Assembly (NCBI GenBank): GCA_026770705.1
Contig: JANJGN010000544.1
Span: forward strand, 248,001 to 312,000
DNA: 64,000 bases
From: Isurus oxyrinchus
Lineage: Eukaryota
Reading direction: 5' to 3'
The notes beneath the pieces are model-generated. The model saw only the letters and a program-made list of their open reading frames with translations, ran no database searches and was not told where the DNA came from. The stretch's first letter is position 1; every line of letters begins with the position of its first letter. The translations under genes and the position numbers were made by a program. This document shows positions 989 through 58,170 of the stretch, piece by piece.

Positions 989-3231
989 TTTTCATTATAC
1001 GTTTGAAACACATTTACGTGCATTGTGTGGATTACGGGAATGATACATCGAAGTTTGGCTGTATTATTATCAAGGGGAGGCTCCGAAAATGGCGCCAAAT
1101 TGCCAGGGCTACATTAATTATTAAAAATAAAACTGCTGTTGGAATGTGGGTTGATATTTAAACTCCGGAGTCCTGCTTTAGTGACTAGAGGATGTTGCAC
1201 TCCAATTTTTATTACCGATATGAGTACCCGGATAGTGCTTGAACATTTTTAAGCTGCCCACTTATAAATATATCATGTGAAATACACGTTTAGAACAGAA
1301 GAGCTTTTACATCGTGCAAACATAATCACAAACATGGAAATCTTACACGGGTGTAGATATAAGAGCACATTCTTATAAATTGTTGATCATCTTAATGTAT
1401 TAAAAATAATATAATGTATTTGTCCAGAAGTTTATGGAATGATTTGGTTAATTTAAGAAGTGTCACCTTAATTTAATTAAGCCTATTATTAACAAGAGAC
1501 AAATCAGAAGAAGAATAAAATTATTAACAAATTTGGCATAATGGAGTTAAATATCACCAATATGAAAATAGAGTCTAAGATCACTACGAATTAATTACAA
1601 AAAAAATCTCTCAAATGTGCTGCGCTGGGTCCAGGATTAAAGTTAAAACTCATTGTTGGAGAATTTTTAAAATTATTTTCAATTAACTTGGAAAGCAACA
1701 TGTTTCTCACTCAACTACCTTTGGCTCCATTGGATATTGCTCTACAATTTAATTAATTATCTTCGTGCTTTGCCTCAGCAGTTTCAATGATTATATATTA
1801 TTCTGAAATTATGTCAGTGAATAATAGGAGTTCAGTGTAAATATCTCCCGATTTGTTAAATTTTTGCTCTGTTACAATGTCCCTGTTATAGACATAAATT
1901 ACCATGAATGTAAATTATTTTGATGTACCTGTTCTCAGCCAAACTTACTCCAAGGCTGTTGTGAAAGCTGTACACAGACAGGGAGAAATTGAGGCCCGTC
2001 AAATGGAGTTTTTTTCCATTTAGAAGCAAAATAATTTCACAGAAGTGACATGGTCATAAATTTACAAACGTTTTAATCTATTCAAACAGATTAATAGATA
2101 ATAGAGAAATCTATCTTTAATAGACTGATTTTTGCATTGTTTATGTCTGTTCTGTTTCTATGTGCGTGGTCACTGTGCGGGAATCGGGAGCCTTCTGGCT
2201 GTTTGTGAACTTCCTGGTTCATTCTCCTGTAATTCAGGGAATTAATTTCGGACCATTTATTTAAGAAGTTTGTATATCCGAGAAAGGTGCAAATCTGTTC
2301 TTAAGTTTGAGAATATGTCTCAGAAATAAGATCAGTTTCCCAGTTTGTGGAATTCAGAAGGAATGCAAAGTGTAGAAAGATATTTTTCCTGTTCAGTGTT
2401 TGCTGTATCAGAGCCTGTGGTTTGTTGATGGTCCAGTCTAAACGCAAGTTTTAACTAAAAATGCGGAATAGAGGGTGTTTTAGAATGCATCCCACCATTT
2501 ATATTCCTGAAATACAGCGCTTCACAGGACTGTGCAAAGAGAGTTTTAGTATAATTCACCTGTTCTGTATCTGACATGAGAGTGTTGGCACTCTCAATTT
2601 TCAAGGAACTTTAATCAGTATCAAATGCATTGGGCATGAGTGCTCCGAATTAGATATGTAAAAGTAAATGATTCAATTCCTTCAATGAAGTAGCAGATCG
2701 ATAATTTAACATACGTTTCATTCTAAAAAAAAACCAAGTTTGTGATTAAGGGATGATGATTAAACATTTTCAATAGCAGATAATACTTGAATCAGATTGG
2801 CCTGATCTAAAGCTTAATTTCAGGACAGTTACAGGAAGTCACTGTAATGTTGCCTTCTGCGATATGATCGAATCTGAAAATAACTTGTGCAACGTAAATA
2901 GACAGTATGGTGCCTTACTCCTTGTTAAACGGAAACTACGGTGGGAATGAGAGCTGGAAAAATATGAATTTAACTTAACTCAATGCACAACCTGATTCCA
3001 ACTGCCCGAAGGACATTTGATGAACTATCAGAGAGGCAATTTTACTCTTGTTCCAAGGCCTTACTAGGGCTGTGGGTTTTATGTGGAACTTCAATGTTCT
3101 TCTCTCTTGTATCTAATCAGTGCAGTCTGTGAACTGTGAACGTTTGATTGTGCAGGGTAGATGGAACTCCTTTTTCTGAACATTTATCTATTCATGCATC
3201 CATTTTCCATCCATCGATGCAAAGATGGATG

Positions 3232-4010
3232 NNNNNNNNNNNNNNNNNNNNNNNNNNNNNNNNNNNNNNNNNNNNNNNNNNNNNNNNNNNNNNNNNNNNN
3301 NNNNNNNNNNNNNNNNNNNNNNNNNNNNNNNNNNNNNNNNNNNNNNNNNNNNNNNNNNNNNNNNNNNNNNNNNNNNNNNNNNNNNNNNNNNNNNNNNNNN
3401 NNNNNNNNNNNNNNNNNNNNNNNNNNNNNNNNNNNNNNNNNNNNNNNNNNNNNNNNNNNNNNNNNNNNNNNNNNNNNNNNNNNNNNNNNNNNNNNNNNNT
3501 GTCTATCTATGTATCTATAGATCTGTCTATCTATGTATCTATAGATCTATCTATCTAGGTATCTATAGATCTGTCTATCTAGGTATCTATAGATCTGTCT
3601 TTCTATGTATCTATAGATCTGTCTATCTATGTATCTATAGATCTGTTTATCTATGTATCTGTCTGTCTCTATCTTCTATCATTCTCTATCGCTCTTTTTC
3701 TATCGCTCTCTCTCTCTATCCATCCANNNNNNNNNNNNNNNNNNNNNNNNNNNNNNNNNNNNNNNNNNNNNNNNNNNNNNNNNNNNNNNNNNNNNNNNNN
3801 NNNNNNNNNNNNNNNNNNNNNNNNNNNNNNNNNNNNNNNNNNNNNNNNNNNNNNNNNNNNNNNNNNNNNNNNNNNNNNNNNNNNNNNNNNNNNNNNNNNN
3901 NNNNNNNNNNNNNNNNNNNNNNNNNNNNNNNNNNNNNNNNNNNNNNNNNNNNNNNNNNNNNNNNATCTACTGATCTCTTTAACTCTCTGTCTATCTATCT
4001 ATCTGTTTAT
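3232..4010. repeat. (TCTA)-type simple repeat with assembly gaps (N 3232-3499, 3727-3964)
   Basis: About 24-bp gtctatctatgtatctatagatct units between N runs. Confidence 0.9.
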
Positions 4011-4486
4011 CTAACCAAGATAGCTGAAATAATTGATTATTTGTAAACATCATTGAGAATTGGCAAATTTGGAGAGTTAATACAAAATTGTGATTGGCCG
4101 AAAACCAACTGTCCATGCTATCAAATAGTCTCATTGATCAACTCTGAGTCATGCTTTATAAAAGTGCTAAAACATTGTCTGCAAGTAATGAAGCTAGTCG
4201 ATCCACCGGTCAGAGTTACATAATCTTTAGAGTAAATGCTGCCAAGCATCATCCACGTTTATCCTCTGAAAACGACAACATGTTGATAATGAAACTACAA
4301 TAAATTAGCATAAAAACCCCTCTGGCCCACTGATGTCCGTCATGGAAGATAATCGGCCATCCTGGCCCAGAGATAGGTAAATGTTAGTGCATTAATTTAG
4401 TCATTTGCTGGTGAGAAGAGGTTGATAGTAAAATACTTTAAGCGAGAGCTCAGTGAAAATAATGTGGAAGGGTCTAAAGTGAAAGT

Positions 4487-4665
4487 AAAAACAAAAAAAC
4501 TGCGGATGCTGGAAATCCAAAACAAAAACAGAATTACCTGGAAAAACTCAGCAGGTCCGGCAGCATCAGCGGAGAAGAAAAGAGTTGACGTTTCGAGTCC
4601 TCATGACCCTTCGACAGAACTTGAGTTCGAGTCCAAGAAAGAGTTGAAATATAAGCTGGTTTAAG

Positions 4666-4696
<31 letters not shown>

Positions 4697-6347
4697 GGGG
4701 GGGCGCGGAGAGATAGAGAGAGAGAGAGAGAGAGGTTGGGGTTGTGGGGGGGGGGGGGGGATGTGGCTGTGTGGATAAACAAGCAGTGATAGAAGCAGAT
4801 CATCAAAAGATGTCAACGACAATGGTACAATAGAACACATAGGTGTTAAAGTTAAAGTTGGTGATATTATCTAAACGAATGTGCTAATTAAGAATGGATG
4901 GTAGGGCACTCAAGGTATAGCTCTAGTGGGGGTTTTTTTATATAATAGAAATAGGTGGGAAAAGGAAAATCTTTATAATTTATTGGGAAAAAAAAGGAAG
5001 GGGGAAACAGAAAGGGGGTGGGGATGGGGGAGGGAGCTCACAACCTAAAGTTGTTGAATTCAATATTCAGTCCGGAAGGCAGTATGGTGCCTAGTCGGAA
5101 GATGAGCTGTTGTTCCTCCAGTTTGCGTTGGGCTTCACTGGAACAATGCAGCAAGCCAAGGACAGACATGTGGGCAAGAGAGCAGGGTGGAGTGTTAAAA
5201 TGGCAAGCGACAGGGAGGTTTGGGTCATTCTTGCGGACAGACCACAGGTGTTCTGCAAAGCAGTTGCCCAGTTTACGTTTGGTCTCTCCAATGTAGAGGA
5301 GACCACATTGGGAGCAACGAATGCAGTAGACCAAGTTGGGGGAAATGCAAGTGAAATACTGCTTCACTTGAAAGGAGTGTTTGGGCCCTTGGACGGTGAG
5401 GAGAGAGGAAGTGAAGGGGCAGGTGTTACATCTTTTGCGTGGGCATGGAGTGGTGCCATAGTAGGTGGTTGAGGAGTAGGGGGTGATGGAGGAGTGGACC
5501 AGGGTGTCCCGGAGGGAGCGATCCCTACGGAATGCCGATAAGGGGGGTGAAGGGAAGATGTGTTTGGTGGTGGCATCATGCTGGAGTTGGCGGAAATGGC
5601 GGAGGATGATCCTTTGAATGCGGAGGCTGGTGGGGTGATAAGTGAGGACAAGGGGGACCCTAGCATGTTTCTGGGAGGGAGGAGAAGGCGTGAGGGCGGA
5701 TGCGCGGGAGATGGGCTGGACACGGTTGAGGGCCCTGTCAACGACCATGGGTGGAAAACCTCAGTAGAGGAAGAAGGAGGACATGTCAGAGGAGCTGTTT
5801 TTGAAGGTAACATCATCGGAACAGATGCGACGAAGGCGAAGGAACTGGGAGAATGGGATGGAGTCCTTACAGGAAGCGGGGTGTGAGAAGCTGTAGTTGA
5901 GGTAGCTGTGGGAGTTGGTGGGTTTGTAATGGATATTGGTGGACAGTCTATCACCAGAGATTGAGACAGAGAGGTCAAGGAAGGGAAGGGAAGTGTCAGA
6001 GATGGACCACGTGAAAATGATGGAGGGGTGGAGATTGGAAGCAAAATTAATAAATTTTTCCAAGTCCCGACGAGAGCATGAAGCGGCACCAAAGTAATCA
6101 TCGATGTACCGGAGAAAAAGTTGTGGAAGGGGGCCGGGGTAGGACTGCAACAAGGAATGTTCCACATACCCCATAAAGAGACAGGCATAGCTGGGGCCCA
6201 TGCGGGTACCCATAGCCACACCTTTTATTTGGAGGAAGTGAGAGGAGTTGAAGGAGAAATTGTTCAACGTGAGAACAAGTTCAGCCAGACGGAGGAGAGT
6301 AGTGGTGGATGGGGATTGTTCGGGCCTCTGTTCGAGGAAGAAGCTAA
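4487..6347 (-). mobile_element. Penelope-like element, inverted 5'-truncated arm (RT C-terminal half, GIY-YIG, 3' tail)
   Basis: Reverse complement of 6753-8554. ORFs 5761-6378 and 5038-5748 (YIDD; VYCIRCSQCGLLYIGET) are separated by a CGA>TGA stop at 5761-5763. Confidence 0.95.
4583..4621 (-). ncRNA. Minimal hammerhead motif in the inverted PLE arm
   Basis: Exact reverse complement of 8455-8493. Confidence 0.7.
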
Positions 6348-6349
6348 AG

Positions 6350-8062
6350 TACCTCTCCCTGGACCATGACCCCACCACTGAACATCAAGCCATTGTTTCC
6401 AGGACTGTCACTGACCTCATCTCCTCTGGGGATCTCCCTCCCACAGCTTCCAACCTGATAGTCGCCCAACCTCGGACGGCCCGCTTCTATCTCCTACCCA
6501 AAATCCACAAACAGAACTGCCCCGGTAGACCGATCATCTCAGCTTGCTCCTGCCCCACAGAACTCATCTCTCGTTATCTTGACTCCCTTCTCTCTCCCCT
6601 TGTCCAATCCCTTCCCACCTACATCCGTGATTCCTCTGACACCTTACGTCACATCAACAATTTCCAGTTCCATGGCCCCAACCGCTTCCTCTTCACCATG
6701 GACGTCCAATCCCTCTACACCTCCATCCCCCACCAGGATGGTCTGAGGGTCCTTAGCTTCTTCCTCGAACAGAGGCCCGAACAATCCCCATCCACCACTA
6801 CTCTCCTCCGTCTGGCTGAACTTGTTCTCACGTTGAACAATTTCTCCTTCAACTCCTCTCACTTCCTCCAAATAAAAGGTGTGGCTATGGGTACCCGCAT
6901 GGGCCCCAGCTATGCCTGTCTCTTTATGGGGTATGTGGAACATTCCTTGTTGCAGTCCTACTCCGGCCCCCTTCCACAACTCTTTCTCCGGTACATCGAT
7001 GATTACTTCGGTGCCGCTTCATGCTCTCGTCGGGACTTGGAAAAATTTATTAATTTTGCTTCCAATCTCCACCCCTCCATCACTTTCACGTGGTCCTTCT
7101 CTGACACTTCCCTTCCCTTCCTTGACCTCTCTGTCTCAATCTCTGGTGATAGACTGTCCACCAATATCCATTACAAACCCACCGACTCCCACAGCTACCT
7201 CGACTACAGCTCCTCACACCCCACTTCCTGTAAGGACTCCATCCCATTCTCCCAGTTCCTTCACCTCCGTCGCATCTGTTCCGATGATGTTACCTTCAAA
7301 GACAGTTCCTCTGACATGTCCTCCTTCTTCCTTAACCGAGGTTTTCCACCCACGGTCGTTGACAGGGCCCTCAACCGTGTCCGGCCCATCTCCCGCGCAT
7401 CCGCCCTCATGCCTTCTCCTCCCTCCCAGAAACATGCTAGGGTCCCCCTTGTCCTCACTTATCACCCCACCAGCCTCCGCATTCAAAGGATCATCCTTCG
7501 CCATTTCCGCCAACTCCAGCATGATGCCACCACCAAACACATCTTCCCTTCACCCCCCTTATCGGCATTCCGTAGGGATCACTCCCTCCGGGACACCCTG
7601 GTCCACTCCTCCATCACCCCCTACTCTTCAACCCCCTCCTATGGCACCACCCCATGCCCACGCAAAAGATGTAACACCTGCCCCTTCACTTCCTCTCTCC
7701 TCACCGTCCAAGGGCCCAAACATTCCTTTCAAGTGAAGCAGCATTTCACTTGCATTTCCCCCAACTTAGTTTACTGCATTCGTTGCTCCCAATGTGGTCT
7801 CCTCTACATTGGAGAGACCAAACGTAAACTGGGCGACCGCTTTGCAGAACACCTGCGGTCTGTCCGCAAGAATGACCCAAACCTCCCTGTCGCTTGCCAT
7901 TTTAACACTCCACCCTGCTCTCTTGCCCACATGTTTGTCGTTGGCTTGCTGCATTGTTCCAGTGAAGCCCAACGCAAACTGGAGGAACAACACCTCATCT
8001 TCCGACTCGGCACTTTACAGCCTTCCGGACTGAATATTGAATTCAACAACTTTAGGTTGTGA
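6350..8062 (+). CDS. PLE reverse transcriptase / GIY-YIG endonuclease (N-terminally truncated, frame open)
   Basis: Motifs LPKIHK, GRPIIS, FTMDVQSLYTSI, GVAMGT, YIDD, LPFLD, VYCIRC..YIGET. The first ~33 aa of the called 604-aa ORF come from the antisense arm. Confidence 0.9.
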   Translation, partial: YLSLDHDPTTEHQAIVSRTVTDLISSGDLPPTASNLIVAQPRTARFYLLPKIHKQNCPGRPIISACSCPTELISRYLDSLLSPLVQSLPTYIRDSSDTLRHINNFQFHGPNRFLFTMDVQSLYTSIPHQDGLRVLSFFLEQRPEQSPSTTTLLRLAELVLTLNNFSFNSSHFLQIKGVAMGTRMGPSYACLFMGYVEHSLLQSYSGPLPQLFLRYIDDYFGAASCSRRDLEKFINFASNLHPSITFTWSFSDTSLPFLDLSVSISGDRLSTNIHYKPTDSHSYLDYSSSHPTSCKDSIPFSQFLHLRRICSDDVTFKDSSSDMSSFFLNRGFPPTVVDRALNRVRPISRASALMPSPPSQKHARVPLVLTYHPTSLRIQRIILRHFRQLQHDATTKHIFPSPPLSAFRRDHSLRDTLVHSSITPYSSTPSYGTTPCPRKRCNTCPFTSSLLTVQGPKHSFQVKQHFTCISPNLVYCIRCSQCGLLYIGETKRKLGDRFAEHLRSVRKNDPNLPVACHFNTPPCSLAHMFVVGLLHCSSEAQRKLEEQHLIFRLGTLQPSGLNIEFNNFRL

Positions 8063-8454
8063 GCTCCCTCCCCCATCCCAACCCCTTTCTGTTTCCACCT
8101 TCCTTTTTTTTCCCAATAAATTATAAAGATTTTCCTTTTCCCACCTATTTCTATTGTATAAAAAGACCCCACTAGAGCTATACCTTGAGTGCCCTACCAT
8201 CCATTCTTAATTAGCACATTCGTTTAGATAATATCACCAACTTTAACTTTAACACCTATGTGTTCTATTGTACCATTGTCGTTGACATCTTTGGATGATC
8301 TGCTTCTATCACTGCTTGTTTGTCCACACAACCACATCCCCCCCCCCGCCCCCCACAACCCCAACCTCTCTCTCTCTCTCTCTCTATCTCTCCGCCCCCC
8401 ACACACACACCTTAAACCAACTTATATTTCAACTCTTTCTTGGACTCGAACTCA

Positions 8455-8493
8455 AGTTCTGTCGAAGGGTCATGAGGACTCGAAACGTCAACT
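8455..8493 (+). ncRNA. Minimal type I hammerhead ribozyme motif (variant core CUGUCGA)
   Basis: AGTT-CTGTCGA-A-GGGTC-ATGAG-GACTC-GAAAC-GTC-AACT: stem I AGUU/AACU, stem II GGGUC/GACUC, loopless helix III with ACGU palindrome. Confidence 0.7.
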
Positions 8494-8881
8494 CTTTTCT
8501 TCTCCGCCGATGCTGCCAGACCTGCTGAGTTTTTCCAGGTAATTCTGTTTTTGTTCTAAAGTGAAAGTGTTTGAGGAATGATTGACATTTTCCTCAATAG
8601 AGGAGTAAGGGCTGGAGGAAGCCCAGTTACAATATCCCTTATTTAACTCGCAGTTATGTGGCCTCTTGGGCAGTATTTTCCTTTTCCGACTTGTGCCTCA
8701 TCTTGTGTACAAGACTGGCCATTATGGCGGTGTGTCCCGTCGGGCATATCAATGCCTAAATGCAATTTATGACCAGGATATTTTGGAAATAAATTATCCC
8801 AATATTAAACTTCGAACAATTTGCTTATTTTATACTCACGAATCACATTTTTAACTTGTTCAATTGACCTTTCATTTGCAG

Positions 8882-9181
8882 CGACACCGTCTCCCCCCAC
8901 CCTCTACGCTCTGCTCTCCTCCTGTGAACAAGCAAACACTGCCGGCTCCATCACCTACGGCTGTTTGGCTGCGGACTACTCCCCCGAAATCACCAGCGTT
9001 TCCTGGAAGAAAGATCAAGAGACGATCACAGCTGGATTGAAGACTTACCCATCAGTACTGAACAAGAAGGGAACCCACACCCTGAGCAGCCAGTTAACCA
9101 TCACCGAATCCGAGGTGGGAAGCAGCACAATCTACTGCGAGGTTCGACAGAGTGACTCGGTCTGGCTGAAGGAAATGCCAG
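8882..9181 (+). CDS. IGHM: IgM CH1 exon (intact)
   Basis: ttgcag|CG ACA CCG; ATPSPPTLY...[15 protein letters not shown]...IYCEV...KEMP; donor G|gttcgt. Confidence 0.95.
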
Positions 9182-10122: not shown

Positions 10123-10432
10123 ATATTGTGCTGCATCATCACGGTTCTGCTTACCGTGAGCCCCAGTGAAGAAATCACAAGCAGCAGATCTGCAACCATC
10201 GTCTGTTCAATCGTTGATTTCCGTCCAAATTCAATCAAGGTGAAATGGCTGAAGAATGGACAGGCCATGGCCTCGGGCTTCGTCACCTCTCCCAGCTTTG
10301 AAGTGAACAGGAACTTCTCGGCAACCAGTCGGTTGACAGTCCCCGCTGGGGACTGGTTCAGTCACACGCTCTATACCTGCTAGGTGACTCATAAAGGGGT
10401 CACTCAAAGCCGAAACATCACCAAACCTGAGG
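10123..10432 (+). pseudogene. IGHM: IgM CH2 exon (frameshift near 10137-10140; TAG at 10381)
   Basis: ttgcag|AT acceptor is out of frame with [39 protein letters not shown]. The spliced frame stops at TGA 10167. Donor G|gtaaga. Confidence 0.92.
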
Positions 10433-10830: not shown

Positions 10831-11049
10831 TAAGCATTTCGAACGTTTTCTTTTCATTTTTATTTCAAGTTTCCAGCAATATTTGGCTTTTAGAACTAAA
10901 GAACATTATTGGATTTGCTGTTGGGGAGAGTTAAACTAACTCAGGAGGAGCGTGGGAACAACGAGAGAATTTCAGCATGTAATAGCATGGATTCTGGGAG
11001 CGGCAGCTAACTCTAAAAGAGGGAATATTCAGTTAATAGATGGAGTCAG

Positions 11050-34471: not shown

Positions 34472-35782
34472 AAAAAGCAAAGTACTGTGGTGAAGCATTT
34501 TGCTTTTAAGTTAAAGTACTGTGGATGCTGGAAATCTGAAGTAAAAACTCAGCATCTGGCAGCATCTATGGAGAGAGAAACAGAGTCAACGTATCGAGTC
34601 CATGTGATCTTCTTCAGAACTAAAGAGAAGCAGAAATGTTCACTGTTTTTATACTATTTACGAGGGCGTGGGGTGGAGCAGGTGGGGAAGTCAAGAGGAA
34701 TTGGCAAAGATATTATGTTCACAAGACAAAGGGAGTGTTAATGGTAGCAGTAAGGGCTAAAATGCTGCTGATAGTTGCTTAAAGGTAAGAAAGCAGAATG
34801 TGTGAATAGCAGAATAAGGATCAGCACTCTGTGAAAGAACAACATAGAGCAATGACAGATGGCCCTTTAGGGGCCTCTCTCCTCACCTTCCAAGTGCCCA
34901 AACATTCCTTTCAGGTGAAGCAGCGCGTCATGTGCACCTCCAATTTGGTCCATTTCATTCACTGCTCCCAATGGGGTCTCCCCTACATTGGAGAGACCAA
35001 ACGCAGACTGGCCGACCTCTTTGTGGAACATCTTCAGTCTGTCTGTAAGCATGACCCAGACCACCCTGTCATTTGCCATTTCAACACTCCACCCTGCTGT
35101 CATGTGCACATGTCTGTCCTTGGCTTGCTGCATTGTTCCAGTGAAGCTCAACACAAACTGGAGGAACAGCACCTCATCTTCCGACTAGGCACTTTATAGT
35201 CTTCCGGTGGTAACATGAAGTTCAGCAGCTTCAGATCATGAACTCTCTCCTTCATTTTCACCCTTTTTAAAATCTCTTTATAAAAAAGCATTTTATTAAC
35301 TTATTTTTCATTCATTTATTCATTATTTCACCCCAACCCCTTTTATTATCCCCTTTTCTATCTTTTTTCCCCAACTATATCCCCCTCCCACATCCCACCC
35401 CCAAAAGGGCCATCTGTTACTCGTTCCATGTTGTTTTTTTTCACAGAGCGCTGAACCTTGTTCTGCTATTCACATATCCTGCTTTCTTACCTTTATGTCA
35501 CTATCAGCACCTTCTTCAGCCATTACCATTACAATTAACATCCCCTTTGTCTTGTGTCCAGGGCATCTTTGTTAGTCTCTCCTTAGCCCCCACCTACCAC
35601 TGACCTTCTATCCAGAATCACCTGCTCTACCCATCCCGCCCCGCTTAAACAGGAGAATTCAAACAATTTCTACTTTTCTTCATCTCTGAAGAAGAGTTAT
35701 ACGGATTCGAACATTAACACTGTTTCCCTCTCCACCGAGTCTGTGAGACCTGTTGAGTTTTTCCAGGAATTTCTCTTTTTAT
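34472..35782 (+). mobile_element. Older PLE: inverted tail (34472-34866) plus GIY-YIG and tail (34870-35782)
   Basis: HCSQWGLPYIGETKRR..EEQHLIFRLGTL; 13-bp TSD AATATATAAGAAG at 34459 and 35783. Confidence 0.85.
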
Positions 35783-36600: not shown

Positions 36601-37180
36601 GGGAAACCTTCTGTAGTGAGAGACCATGATCCCTATTACCCTACACAAACCCTGCAATGTAATGGGGAAACTTTCCATGTGTGGGAGACCATGATCCCTA
36701 CTATTCTACACAAACCCTGCAATGTAGCGGGGAAACTTTCCATGTCTGGGAGACCATGATCCCTACTACCCTACACAAACCCTGCAATGTAGCGGGGAAA
36801 CTTTCCGTGTGTGGGAGACCATGATCCCTACTACCCTACACAAACCCTGCAATGTAGCAGGGAAACTTTCCGTGTGTGGGAGACCATGATCCCTACTACC
36901 CTACACAAACCCTGCAATGTAGCGGGGAAACTTTCCATGTCTGGGAGACCATGATCCCTACTACCCTACACAAACCCTGCAATGTAGCGGGGAAACTTTC
37001 CGTGTGTGGGAGACCGTGATGCCTACTACCCTACACAAACCCTGCAATGTAGCGGGAAAACTTTCCGTGTGTGGGAGACCGTGATGCCTACTACCCTTCC
37101 GAAACCCTGCAATGTAGTGGGGAAACTTTCCGTGTGTGGGAGACAGTGATCCCTATTAGCCTACAGAAACCCTGCAATGT
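36601..37180. repeat. 65-bp minisatellite, ~9 copies
   Basis: agacc unit starts at 36621, 36686, 36751 ... 37141; near-identical units, no spacers. Confidence 0.95.
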
Positions 37181-53380: not shown

Positions 53381-53514
53381 GATAAAGGCAAAATAGTGCG
53401 GATGCTGGAAATCTGAAACAAAAACAAAAAATGCTGGTAAAATTCAGCAGGTCTGACAGCTTCTGTGCAGAGAAAGACAGAGTTAATGTTTCGAGTCCGT
53501 ATGACTCTTCTGCA
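53381..53514 (-). mobile_element. 134-bp PLE-tail element with hammerhead-like motif
   Basis: 10-bp TSD GAGTTTCTAA (53371, 53515); reverse complement CTGCAGA-A-GAGTC-ATACG-GACTC-GAAAC. Confidence 0.8.
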
Positions 53515-53688
53515 GAGTTTCTAATCCGGGTGTGGAGTCCTACACCGGGTGGTTGTGAACCCTCCCAGTCCATAGTCCGGCTCCATTCCGCTCCTGCACT
53601 CGGCACTTTCTCACCGGCAGGACTTTCCATTCCGGTTCCCCCGCTGTCACTGCGCATGCTCCTCACACCCGGCTCCGCCCCCTATTCA

Positions 53689-54675
53689 AAACAAAAACAA
53701 GAAAAACTTCCCCCAACTTAGTCTACTGCATTCGTTGCTCCCAATGTGGTCTCCTCTACATTGGAGAGACCAAACGTAAACTGGGCGACCGCTTTGCAGA
53801 ACACCTGCGGTCTGTCCGCAAGAATGACCCAAACCTCCCTGTCGCTTGCCATTTTAACACTCCACCCTGCTCTCTTGCCCACATGTCTGTCCTTGGCTTA
53901 CTGCATTGTTCCAGTGAAGCCCAACGCAAACTGGAGGAACAACACCTCATCTTCCGACTAGGCACCTTACAGCCTTCCGGTCTGAATATTGAATTCAATA
54001 ACTTTAGGTCGTGAGCTCCCTCCCCCATCCCCACCCCCTTTCTGTTTCCCCCTTTTTTCCCCTTTTTTTTTCCCTATAAATTTTATAGATTTTTCTTTTC
54101 CCACCTATTTCCATTATTTTTAAATATTTTAAAATCTTTTATGCTCCCCCCACCCCCACTAGAGCTGTACCTTGAGTGCCCTACCATCCATTCTTAATTA
54201 GCACATTCGTTTAGATAATATCACCAACTTTAACTTTAACACCTATGTGTTCTTTTGTACCATTGTTACTGACATCTTTTGATGATCTGCTTCTATCACT
54301 GCTTGTTTGTCTACACAAGCACCTCTGTGTCTCTCTCTCTCTCTCCTTCCCCCCCCCCACACACACACCTTAAACCAGCTTATATTTCAACTCTTTCCTG
54401 GACTCGAAATCAAGTTCTGTCGAAGGGTCATGAGGACTCGAAACGTCAACTCTTTTCTTCTCCGCCGATGCTGCCAGACCTGCTGAGTTTTTCCAGGTAA
54501 TTCTGTTTTTGTTTTGTTTTCAACAAGAAAAACTAGTTCTGTTGAAGGGTCATGAGGACTCGAAACGTCATCAACTCTTTTCTTCTCCGCCGATGCTGCC
54601 AGACCTGCTGAGTTTTTCCAGGTAATTCTGTTTTTGTTTTGGATTTCCAGCATCTGTAGTTTTTTTGTTTTTATT
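53689..54675 (+). mobile_element. Young PLE 3' fragment (GIY-YIG plus partially tandem tail)
   Basis: Near-identical to 7757-8554; 15-bp TSD TCCGCCCCCTATTCA (53674, 54676). Confidence 0.93.
54413..54576 (+). ncRNA. Tandem pair of minimal hammerhead motifs
   Basis: 54413-54451 (CTGTCGA core) and 54535-54576 (CTGTTGA core). Confidence 0.65.
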
Positions 54676-55160
54676 TCCGCCCCCTATTCACTCTGATTGG
54701 GTGGAGGACCAGCCTCACCCGCACCGTTCGTCAGCCGCGTCCCTTCTTGCTATTGGCCTGGAGCTGCCGTCAATCATTGTGAGCTGGCGCATGCGCAGTC
54801 CGTGACAGCAGACGGGGAGACAACTCGAAGAACGGATTTAAAATGCGGAGTTTAGAAAGAACGAGTGCGGATCCAGAGCCGAAATTAAAACCATAAATAG
54901 AGAGATGGCTGGCGGGTGAGTTGGGAAGATTCATAAACTCACGGTGTCGGCCCAAAATCCTCAATAAGGAGCCATCTGTCCCGCGTTCCCTCGGCGCTGC
55001 GAGAGAAAGGCCCCAGATTACAGCCGCCATCTTTATAGGGGCAATGTAATGATGGGCGCATGCGCGACCACCATCTTCATAGCGGCAAATGCAGCAATGC
55101 GCATGCGCCCACCATCCCAGGGAGGGATGTGCAATGTGCTATAGGGCGCGTGCGCATTTT
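54676..55160. promoter_or_regulatory. CpG-rich, probably bidirectional promoter between divergent ZNF genes
   Basis: NRF1 GCGCATGCGC at 54787, 55056, 55099 (variant at 55146); YY1 GCCGCCATCTT at 55023; ATTGG boxes; GC box; candidate donor GTGAGT at 54916. Confidence 0.75.
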
Positions 55161-56370: not shown

Positions 56371-57113
56371 ATTAGTCATCAGGAAGAGAAGCAGGAACTG
56401 GAATGAACTATGAGACTGATTCTGGGTTTAACTTAGAGAGGGAGAGAAAGAAGGAAGGAAACCTTGGGAGGTTTGGAGAAACCATCTTCATGATCATTCA
56501 TGAAATCTCCACACTGTGAGTTTTGGACACAAGGTTAACGTCTGCTATTCTGTTTAGTCGGTCAGGGGGGTTTCAGATTAATGTTTTGTCACAAGTAATA
56601 ACTGAAGTGAGTGATCAAACATATTGTCACCTCTAGTTGTACAAGTTTGTTAAAAAGATACTGAAAGAGATGTCCAAAACTCTCACTGGATTTCAGCACA
56701 GGAAGGAGAGAGTGTGTGTAGGACAGGGATTTGAGGCTTTGGGGGAACAAGAGAGGAAAAAATGTTCCATAGGAACTGGAATTATCTGTTCTGAGTTTCT
56801 ATCCTGTTCTTACAGTAATGACTTTTGTAAACTCATTTTACTGAGATTTAGAAGGGGAGGATTTACTGACAGGAAACTCAAACCAAATATCACATCAAAA
56901 TCTGACAGAGTCATTCGATTCATGAGGACTTGAGTGTCATCAGCCTTTGAATGTGTCAGGAGAAATGTTCGTCTGTTCTGTCTGTGGGAGAAGATTTCAA
57001 ACAGCAGCGACTGGAAAAGCACCGAGACACACACACACACCCGAGTGAAAGTGTTCCAGTGAATTGACTGTGGAAAGAGCTTTAGCCTGAAAAAACAAAT
57101 TACAGCATTCACA

Positions 57114-58170
57114 GTGCGGAGAAAATGCACATGTTCTCTGTGTGGACGAGGCTTCAGCTGGTTATCCAACCTGGAGAGACACAGGCACACAGGCACCATG
57201 GAGAAACCGTGGAAATGTGGGGACTGTGGGAAAGAATTCAATTCCCCATCCCAACTGGAAATTCATCAACGCAGTCACACTGGGGAGAGACCATTTACTT
57301 GCTCTGAATGTGGGAAGGGATTCATTCAGTCAGCCTACCTGTTGAGACATCAGCGGGTTCACACTGGGGAGAGGCCATTCACCTGCACTGAGTGTGGGAA
57401 AGGATTCACTGGATCCTCTGATATGCTGAAGCACCAACGAGTTCACACTGAGGAGAGGCCGTTCAGTTGGACTTCCTGTGGAAAGAGATTCCAGTCTTCG
57501 TTCAACCTCACCGTCCACCAGCGACTTCACACTGGAGAGAGGCCGTTCACCTGCTCTGAGTGTGGGAAGGGATTCACTCAATTATCTCACCTATTGACAC
57601 ATCAGCTAGTTCAGACTGGAAAGAGACCATTCACCTGCTCCGAGTGTGGGAAAGGATTCACTCAGTCAGCCTACCTGCTGAGACACCAGCGACATCACAC
57701 TGGGGAGAGGCCGTTTACCTGCCCTGTATGTGGGAAAGGATTCACTGGGTCCTCTGAGCTGCAGAAGCACCAGCGAATTCACACTGAGGAGAGGCCGTTC
57801 AGCTGTACTTCCTGTGGAAAGAGATTCAAGTATTGCTTCCACCTCAAAGTACACCAGCGAGTTCATACTAGGGAAAGGCCATTTACTTGCATTGAGTGTG
57901 GGAAGGGATTCACTCAGTCAGCCTACCTGTTGAGACACTGGAGAGAGGCTGTTCACTTGCCCTGAATGTGGGAAAAGATTCACTGGTTCTTCTGATCTCC
58001 TGAAGCACCAGCTAATTCACAGTGGCGAGAGACCATTCACCTGCTCTAACTGTGGGAAGAAATTCACTCAGTTATCTCACCTACTGACACACCAACGAAT
58101 TCACACTGGGGAGAGGCCATTCACCTGCTCCGAGTGTGGGAAGGGATTCACTAAGTCATCCCACCAGTGA
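57114..58170 (+). pseudogene. Tandem C2H2 zinc-finger gene (~13 fingers), frameshifted at ~57936
   Basis: [16 protein letters not shown] repeats; C>W and H>Q finger lesions; a 14-nt deletion shifts frame and further fingers continue to TGA near 58168. Confidence 0.85.

Follow-up and report, generated by a model that had tools for sequence, protein, structure and literature searches.

A palindromic Penelope-like element insertion and the apparent amplification of a broken IgM cluster in Isurus oxyrinchus

In Isurus oxyrinchus, one IgM cluster carries a head-to-head retroelement palindrome within its J-CH1 intron. It was analyzed within a window of 64,000 nucleotides, which is the whole stretch of DNA studied (contig JANJGN010000544.1, positions 248,001 to 312,000). 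We favor, with a probability of roughly 0.7, the reading that the insert is a passenger in an IgM gene which was already dead or dispensable. What likely goes beyond an ordinary insertion is the post-mortem amplification of the IgM cluster, together with eight replicate palindromes showing some conversion. The insertion can serve to mark how IgM clusters are born and die. No earlier report of the locus was found in the literature outside subscription journals and supplements.

Structure and identity of the insert

One pair of 14-bp TSDs (TCTAAAGTGAAAGT, at 4473-4486 and 8555-8568) surrounds the whole insert. The features of the insert and of the exons downstream are as follows.

4473..4486, + strand: left TSD, 14 bp, single copy at empty sites
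4487..4521, - strand: tail of the Penelope-like element (PLE), ~35 nt, left arm only (from arm alignment and family copies)
4487..6347, - strand: left arm, inverted and 5'-truncated, with late RT, GIY-YIG and 3' UTR/pLTR
4583..4621, - strand: hammerhead-like motif, left-arm copy, mirroring 8455-8493 in the arm alignment
6348..6349, no strand: head-to-head junction filler AG, 2 nt, identical in eight of eight copies
6348..6752, + strand: unpaired loop of 405 nt, the right arm's additional 5' reach
6350..8554, + strand: right arm, direct
6350..8062, + strand: right-arm ORF remnant, 570 open codons, with RT, CX4CxxC linker and GIY-YIG
8063..8554, + strand: 3' UTR/pLTR with AATAAA at 8115 and microsatellites; tail-less short end
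8455..8493, + strand: hammerhead-like motif, minimal, right arm, core CUGUCGA...GAAA (read from the sequence)
8555..8568, + strand: right TSD
8882..9181, + strand: IgM CH1 exon, intact
10123..10432, + strand: IgM CH2 exon with a 2-bp deletion and TAG at 10381-10383
14031..14336, + strand: IgM CH3 exon with TAA at 14273-14275
14802..15193, + strand: IgM CH4 and secretory tail, intact in the window

Alignment of the arms gave 97.2% identity and 50 mismatches (54 listed substitutions minus four in the junction overhang; microsatellite indels come on top), and 15 of the 50 substitutions are CpG transitions. The original prediction had described a palindrome with these coordinates and a 14-bp TSD, whose arms differ at scattered, often CpG, sites; sequence and arm alignment bear this out. 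Translation agreed with its 570 open codons in the + arm and with CGA>TGA in the - arm (5763-5761), which is common to five of the eight insert copies. The insert had been placed ~330 nt before CH1 and ends 327 nt before the exon start at 8882. Tails had been assigned to both ends; the left arm has one (4487-4521), but the right arm lacks the extra ~35 nt. In full-length family copies this tail continues into sequence preceding the ORF. The sense AATAAA attributed to the insert is present at 8115, but it is one of three such hexamers (6049, 6871 and 8115).

The view that the element belongs to Penelope holds, as RT plus a GIY-YIG at the C-terminal end lie in one ORF. The RVT_1 profile matched above cutoff (E=1.3e-8) and the GIY-YIG profile slightly under it (E=6e-4, 20.4 bits, cutoff 22.6). 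In a CCHH finger, the pair of Cys residues lies between GIY and YIG (VYCIRCSQCGLLYIGET), and His residues come after it (EHLRS, VACHF). The RT-EN linker contains a CX2-5CxxC finger, CPRKRCNTC, in both arms and in all four full-length family copies; a DKG motif ahead of the RT core was found in three of these four and is cut off in both window arms. The structural traits of EN+ PLEs, namely pLTR, tandem/inverted structure and one-sided tail, are all present. Judged by these motifs, the insert is an EN+ PLE with a Neptune-type motif. The available text of PMC8557442 assigns the linker finger to Neptune and Nematis and not to Penelope and Poseidon; by this finger, shared with Neptune/Nematis-type PLEs and absent from strict-sense Penelope/Poseidon elements as described there, the window element would be of either Neptune or Nematis type.

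A first look at the genome gave 1,867 candidate family members, and the 40 scored were 99-100% identical over 641 bp. The full frame of 926 codons was found in four of 39 fetched copies, which were the best-scoring ones and hence biased to young copies. The family thus sampled is large and young. Since the first ~355 of the 926 codons, and with them the DKG motif, are missing from the right-arm ORF remnant, the window insertion presumably cannot be a source copy. The hammerhead-like motif is present in 38 of the 39 family copies; its core carries a U where the canonical core has an A. An Rfam scan gave no hammerhead match and only two chance snoRNA matches, and the MFE fold of the stretch was not supportive (z=+1.2).

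The head-to-head shape is common in the family. Inverted arms of at least 1.2 kb were found in 10 of the 39 other copies and shorter ones in five, TSDs of 13-15 bp in seven (plus one doubtful TSD of 12 bp), and a tail at exactly one end in all 11 head-to-head copies with ends read, or 12 of 12 with the window. An inverted copy, a TSD and a one-sided tail are typical PLE architecture in the parts of PMC3846280 and PMC8557442 that deal with it. The EN+ PLEs described in these parts share with the window element RT with C-terminal GIY-YIG, head-to-head partial copies within one TSD, and a one-sided tail (30-40 bp there, ~35 nt here). They have one inverted 5'-truncated copy, whereas here both arms are 5'-truncated and an internal direct pLTR is absent; rotifer examples have TSDs of 8-10 bp as compared to 14 bp, and the window insertion, unlike those described, was later multiplied eight-fold along with its host region. 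By its structure, the palindrome is an ordinary head-to-head PLE insertion of already known architecture.

Alleles seldom found in the family occur in both arms (for instance 8152, 0 of 39 copies, and 8058, 1 of 39), which makes one source element likely. The GIY-YIG nuclease would have cut the target with a 14-nt stagger, and each cut end would likely have primed reverse transcription on RNA of this one element. Synthesis would have begun at the tail-giving site from one end and at the short site from the other, and the resulting pair of 5'-truncated cDNAs would then have been joined head to head via the 2-nt filler. This priming model may apply by analogy to a Poseidon element, for which the available text of PMC11167929 connects the tail with two sites at which RT starts in vitro; the long-plus-short end pattern (12 of 12) fits these two sites.

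That the palindrome arose from two independent insertions or from an assembly fold-back is very improbable. Nothing beyond the 2.8% difference between the arms speaks for it, whereas a single TSD pair brackets the whole insert, empty sites hold the 14-mer once, the arms share the rare alleles, the junction is identical in eight contigs and insertions of this build are also found on chromosome-size contigs. An assembly artefact in particular is unlikely because the eight contigs hold the palindrome each with its own mutations.

Eight copies in a lineage of broken IgM clusters

The insertion junction was found at eight IgM loci in a genome search, with a ninth match (two mismatches) on contig C2. 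Related IgM clusters number 49 in the genome, eight with the insert and 41 empty. The comparison of paralogous clusters proposed in the original prediction thus yielded 41 empty sites, each with the TSD 14-mer once; its "single" palindrome stands as one insertion event, but not as one copy. The eight insert clusters form one clade (support 1.0, 0.7-2.4% apart), and their flanks are 97-99.7% alike out to 108 kb on the upstream side and 57 kb on the downstream side; the insertion therefore happened once and was multiplied as part of a unit spanning at least 165 kb. They sit on eight separate small contigs, some of which may be alleles, giving at least four loci for a diploid. The cluster tree is blurred by inter-cluster conversion, with the CH2 stop absent in two nested insert copies.

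V, D, D and J segments lie directly upstream of the window. This agrees with the V-D-D-J-C organisation of cartilaginous-fish IgM clusters in the consulted part of PMC4279169, each cluster having one V, two D and one J as well as CH1-4, a secretory tail and TM exons; different from the clusters described there is a clade of eight frameshifted clusters marked by one palindrome. The window cluster is a pseudogene by frame-breaking lesions in V and C. A 1-bp deletion in VH FR2 (about C544:245496, ~2.5 kb upstream of the window) was found by genome search at exactly the eight insert clusters, and the in-frame motif gave 38 matches. This frameshift is enough on its own to kill the gene. The CH2 TAG is present in six of the eight insert copies, the CH3 TAA in three, and the CH2 2-bp deletion in the window copy and C132; the insert copy C358 has CH1-4 intact.

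Among the empty clusters, 13 of 41 have C lesions and three of 16 V segments read are frameshifted, so that 14 of 41 are broken overall; some of the 1-bp C lesions may be homopolymer assembly errors. Lesions were found in three of the four nearest empty sisters. The pseudogene state thus stands at 8/8 with the insert and 14/41 without it, the eight being one event to be counted once. For CH1-4, counting without L035, which is identical to L034, gave an N/S of 57/28 for the insert clade, 45/26 for the four empty sisters and 37/39 for the main clade (neutral expectation ~2.5; insert versus main clade p=0.025). Relaxed selection extends beyond the insert clade. The stem value of 12/9 is too small for timing the loss of the gene.

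The IgM cluster went on duplicating once broken, and cluster counts overstate working genes: eight of the 49 related clusters represent one dead lineage. Among the contigs listed for V-D-J, putative RNA contigs of two organism labels contain IgM of this V family that is rearranged, spliced and has the base that keeps the frame. None of those listed bridges the VH deletion allele, from which nothing follows in either direction. None of the contigs listed for the right insertion junction bridges it; these samples and the window do not agree at fixed sites, and the junction result was not used as evidence.

Timing of the insertion and loss of the gene

Between loci, left and right arms differ on average at 56.5 of 1,662 columns, left arms among themselves at 34.7 and right arms at 39.4 (microsatellite and homopolymer columns omitted). 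As the left-right distance exceeds the other two, ~19 differences, a third, predate the amplification, and about two thirds of the arm divergence is younger. Most of the pre-amplification arm alleles are found in few or no copies of the family. Early changes are more numerous in the left arm than in the right, so some arm difference may have been present already at insertion. By a rough estimate, scaled by the faster arm rate and CpG-corrected by ratio, the insertion would lie ~0.45% back on a stem of ~1.1% flank-equivalent divergence; over half of the stem (~60%) would hence predate it. The idea that arm divergence dates the insertion is valid as a rough guide only, owing to decay at CpG sites, tracts of conversion and template differences that may have existed. 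The available part of PMC10587355 gives 7e-10 mutations per site per generation for the epaulette shark with a ten-fold interval; because of this interval, no absolute date is given.

In the course of events that we favor, the VH frameshift would have become fixed on the branch of the insertion, as would probably the CH2 stop, and on this branch the arms would have diverged by the ~19 early differences. The unit of at least 165 kb would then have been duplicated to eight copies. From then on the arms would have decayed under neutrality, and gene conversion would likely have passed sequence from one arm to the other on occasion.

According to the original prediction, the insertion could be the first hit that silenced the cluster; the VH frameshift and CH stops would then have followed later. 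This order appears improbable, even though several findings agree with it. All eight insert copies are broken, so that no functional cluster carrying the insert was found; their lesions occur in none of the 41 empty clusters, in which the same CH2/CH3 stops were looked for; furthermore, the ~19 of 56 arm differences that predate amplification leave time for later lesions. The VH frameshift, however, co-segregates with the insert in eight of eight clusters and is enough by itself, and silencing by the insert is without positive support. Because this co-segregation is perfect, the order of the two events cannot be read from it. A first hit by the insertion also fits poorly with the roughly estimated ~60% of the stem branch that predates it, and with empty sisters which decay at similar N/S. 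A harmful effect of the 1.8-kb duplex is possible. The proposed route, in which this duplex, 327 nt from the CH1 acceptor, blocks splicing, draws editing or silencing or shortens transcription, is nevertheless just as doubtful as the order itself. The full scenario, by which the Penelope hairpin silenced a functional IgM cluster, either as dsRNA or by blocking the J-CH1 splice, before the dead cluster was amplified eight-fold, is somewhat less probable still; if true, a transposon palindrome would be the trigger of antibody-cluster death.

The AATAAA hexamers add little to a first hit. Premature polyadenylation, as originally suggested, is a weak idea because native J-CH1 introns of empty clusters already hold 6-9 AATAAA each (eight introns read); 8115 was thus rejected as a special poly(A) site. 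In six of the eight introns a native AATAAA lies as close as 90 nt to CH1, and the hexamer context of 8115 is present in only 16 of 39 family copies.

Exchange between the arms of the eight palindromes

The eight replicates of one palindrome provide material for measuring arm-to-arm conversion. Left arms cluster with left arms, therefore conversion is not pervasive, and the arms of the insert copies remain 2.5-3.8% apart. Rare derived alleles common to both arms of one locus numbered 11 as compared to 5.6 expected (p=0.006), or 10 versus 5.0 without CpG sites (p=0.003); allele 8247 enters the count three times. Same-locus arms differ at 54.9 positions and cross-locus arms at 56.5 (p=0.016), by which conversion lowers overall arm divergence slightly. 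These patterns argue for arm-to-arm gene conversion, which is probably real but rare and patchy.

Alternatively, the sharing of alleles within a locus might be a mix-up in assembly or polishing, the arms having evolved independently. The analysis covered the assembled sequence alone; the two arms of contig C336 are fully identical over 418 bp, and arms of one locus are closer to each other than arms of different loci by a small margin only, all of which would agree with a mix-up. We nevertheless regard it as unlikely: rare-allele sharing exceeds expectation, and three related contigs have allele 8247 in both arms, in agreement with a single old event that was inherited. The 3' 429 columns of C336 contain five arm differences as compared to 13-21 in the other seven copies, and the C336 patch is interleaved with the later differences 8293, 8325, 8463 and 8472. 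Moreover, transfers run in both directions; the right arm of C342 holds two linked left-arm alleles. Rare and patchy conversion thus remains our preferred reading, and resembles sex-chromosome palindromes, for which the consulted parts of PMC7023750 and PMC5413550 describe the passage of derived alleles between inverted-repeat arms; different from these, the arms here are 1.8-kb stretches of a retroelement.

Amplification of the unit with the frameshifted IgM cluster

A unit of at least 165 kb was found in eight copies, located on contigs C544 (which contains the window), C132, C506, C342, C523, C358, C502, and C336. Each copy harbors one frameshifted IgM cluster and lies on its own contig of 0.4–1.4 Mb. 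Also located inside the unit is a C2H2 zinc-finger array:
57063-57965 of the window, + strand, open reading frame spanning 300 codons

Possible exchange between IgM clusters

The CH2 stop is absent from the clusters L013 (C358) and L028 (C336), both nested in the clade of insert-bearing clusters; furthermore, near the missing stop both carry alleles of the main clade (SPGFEVNGNF). The presence of these alleles at stop-free CH2 exons, despite the nesting of both clusters, suggests that conversion between IgM clusters has occurred. Within the window, both transmembrane exons appeared intact by reading:
20352-20479, IgM exon TM1
20620-20628, IgM exon TM2

Related palindromes and other repeats

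A further head-to-head copy of the Penelope-like family of the insert was observed at locus L117 (C101, approximately 1011-4935), with an empty sister IgM cluster approximately 57 kb upstream. Small solo palindromes of the element's 3' end, approximately 200-280 bp in size, were found at loci L066, L073, L087, L088, and L089; they likewise have one long and one short end.

The window also contains an older short repeat (864-987) akin to the 3' end of the element, in which a canonical-looking hammerhead core motif (CTGAAGA...GAAA) was seen. Further repeats in the window are:
47315-47435, 45512-45635, and 53390-53516, pieces resembling the 864-987 repeat
53708-54676, more diverged Penelope family fragment, 3' end repeated
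34874-35263, more diverged Penelope family fragment
36601-37180, tandemly repeated units of approximately 65 bp each

Additionally, the CH2-CH3 intron contains, at approximately 10950-12900, a stretch which by its look we take to be decayed and LINE-like.
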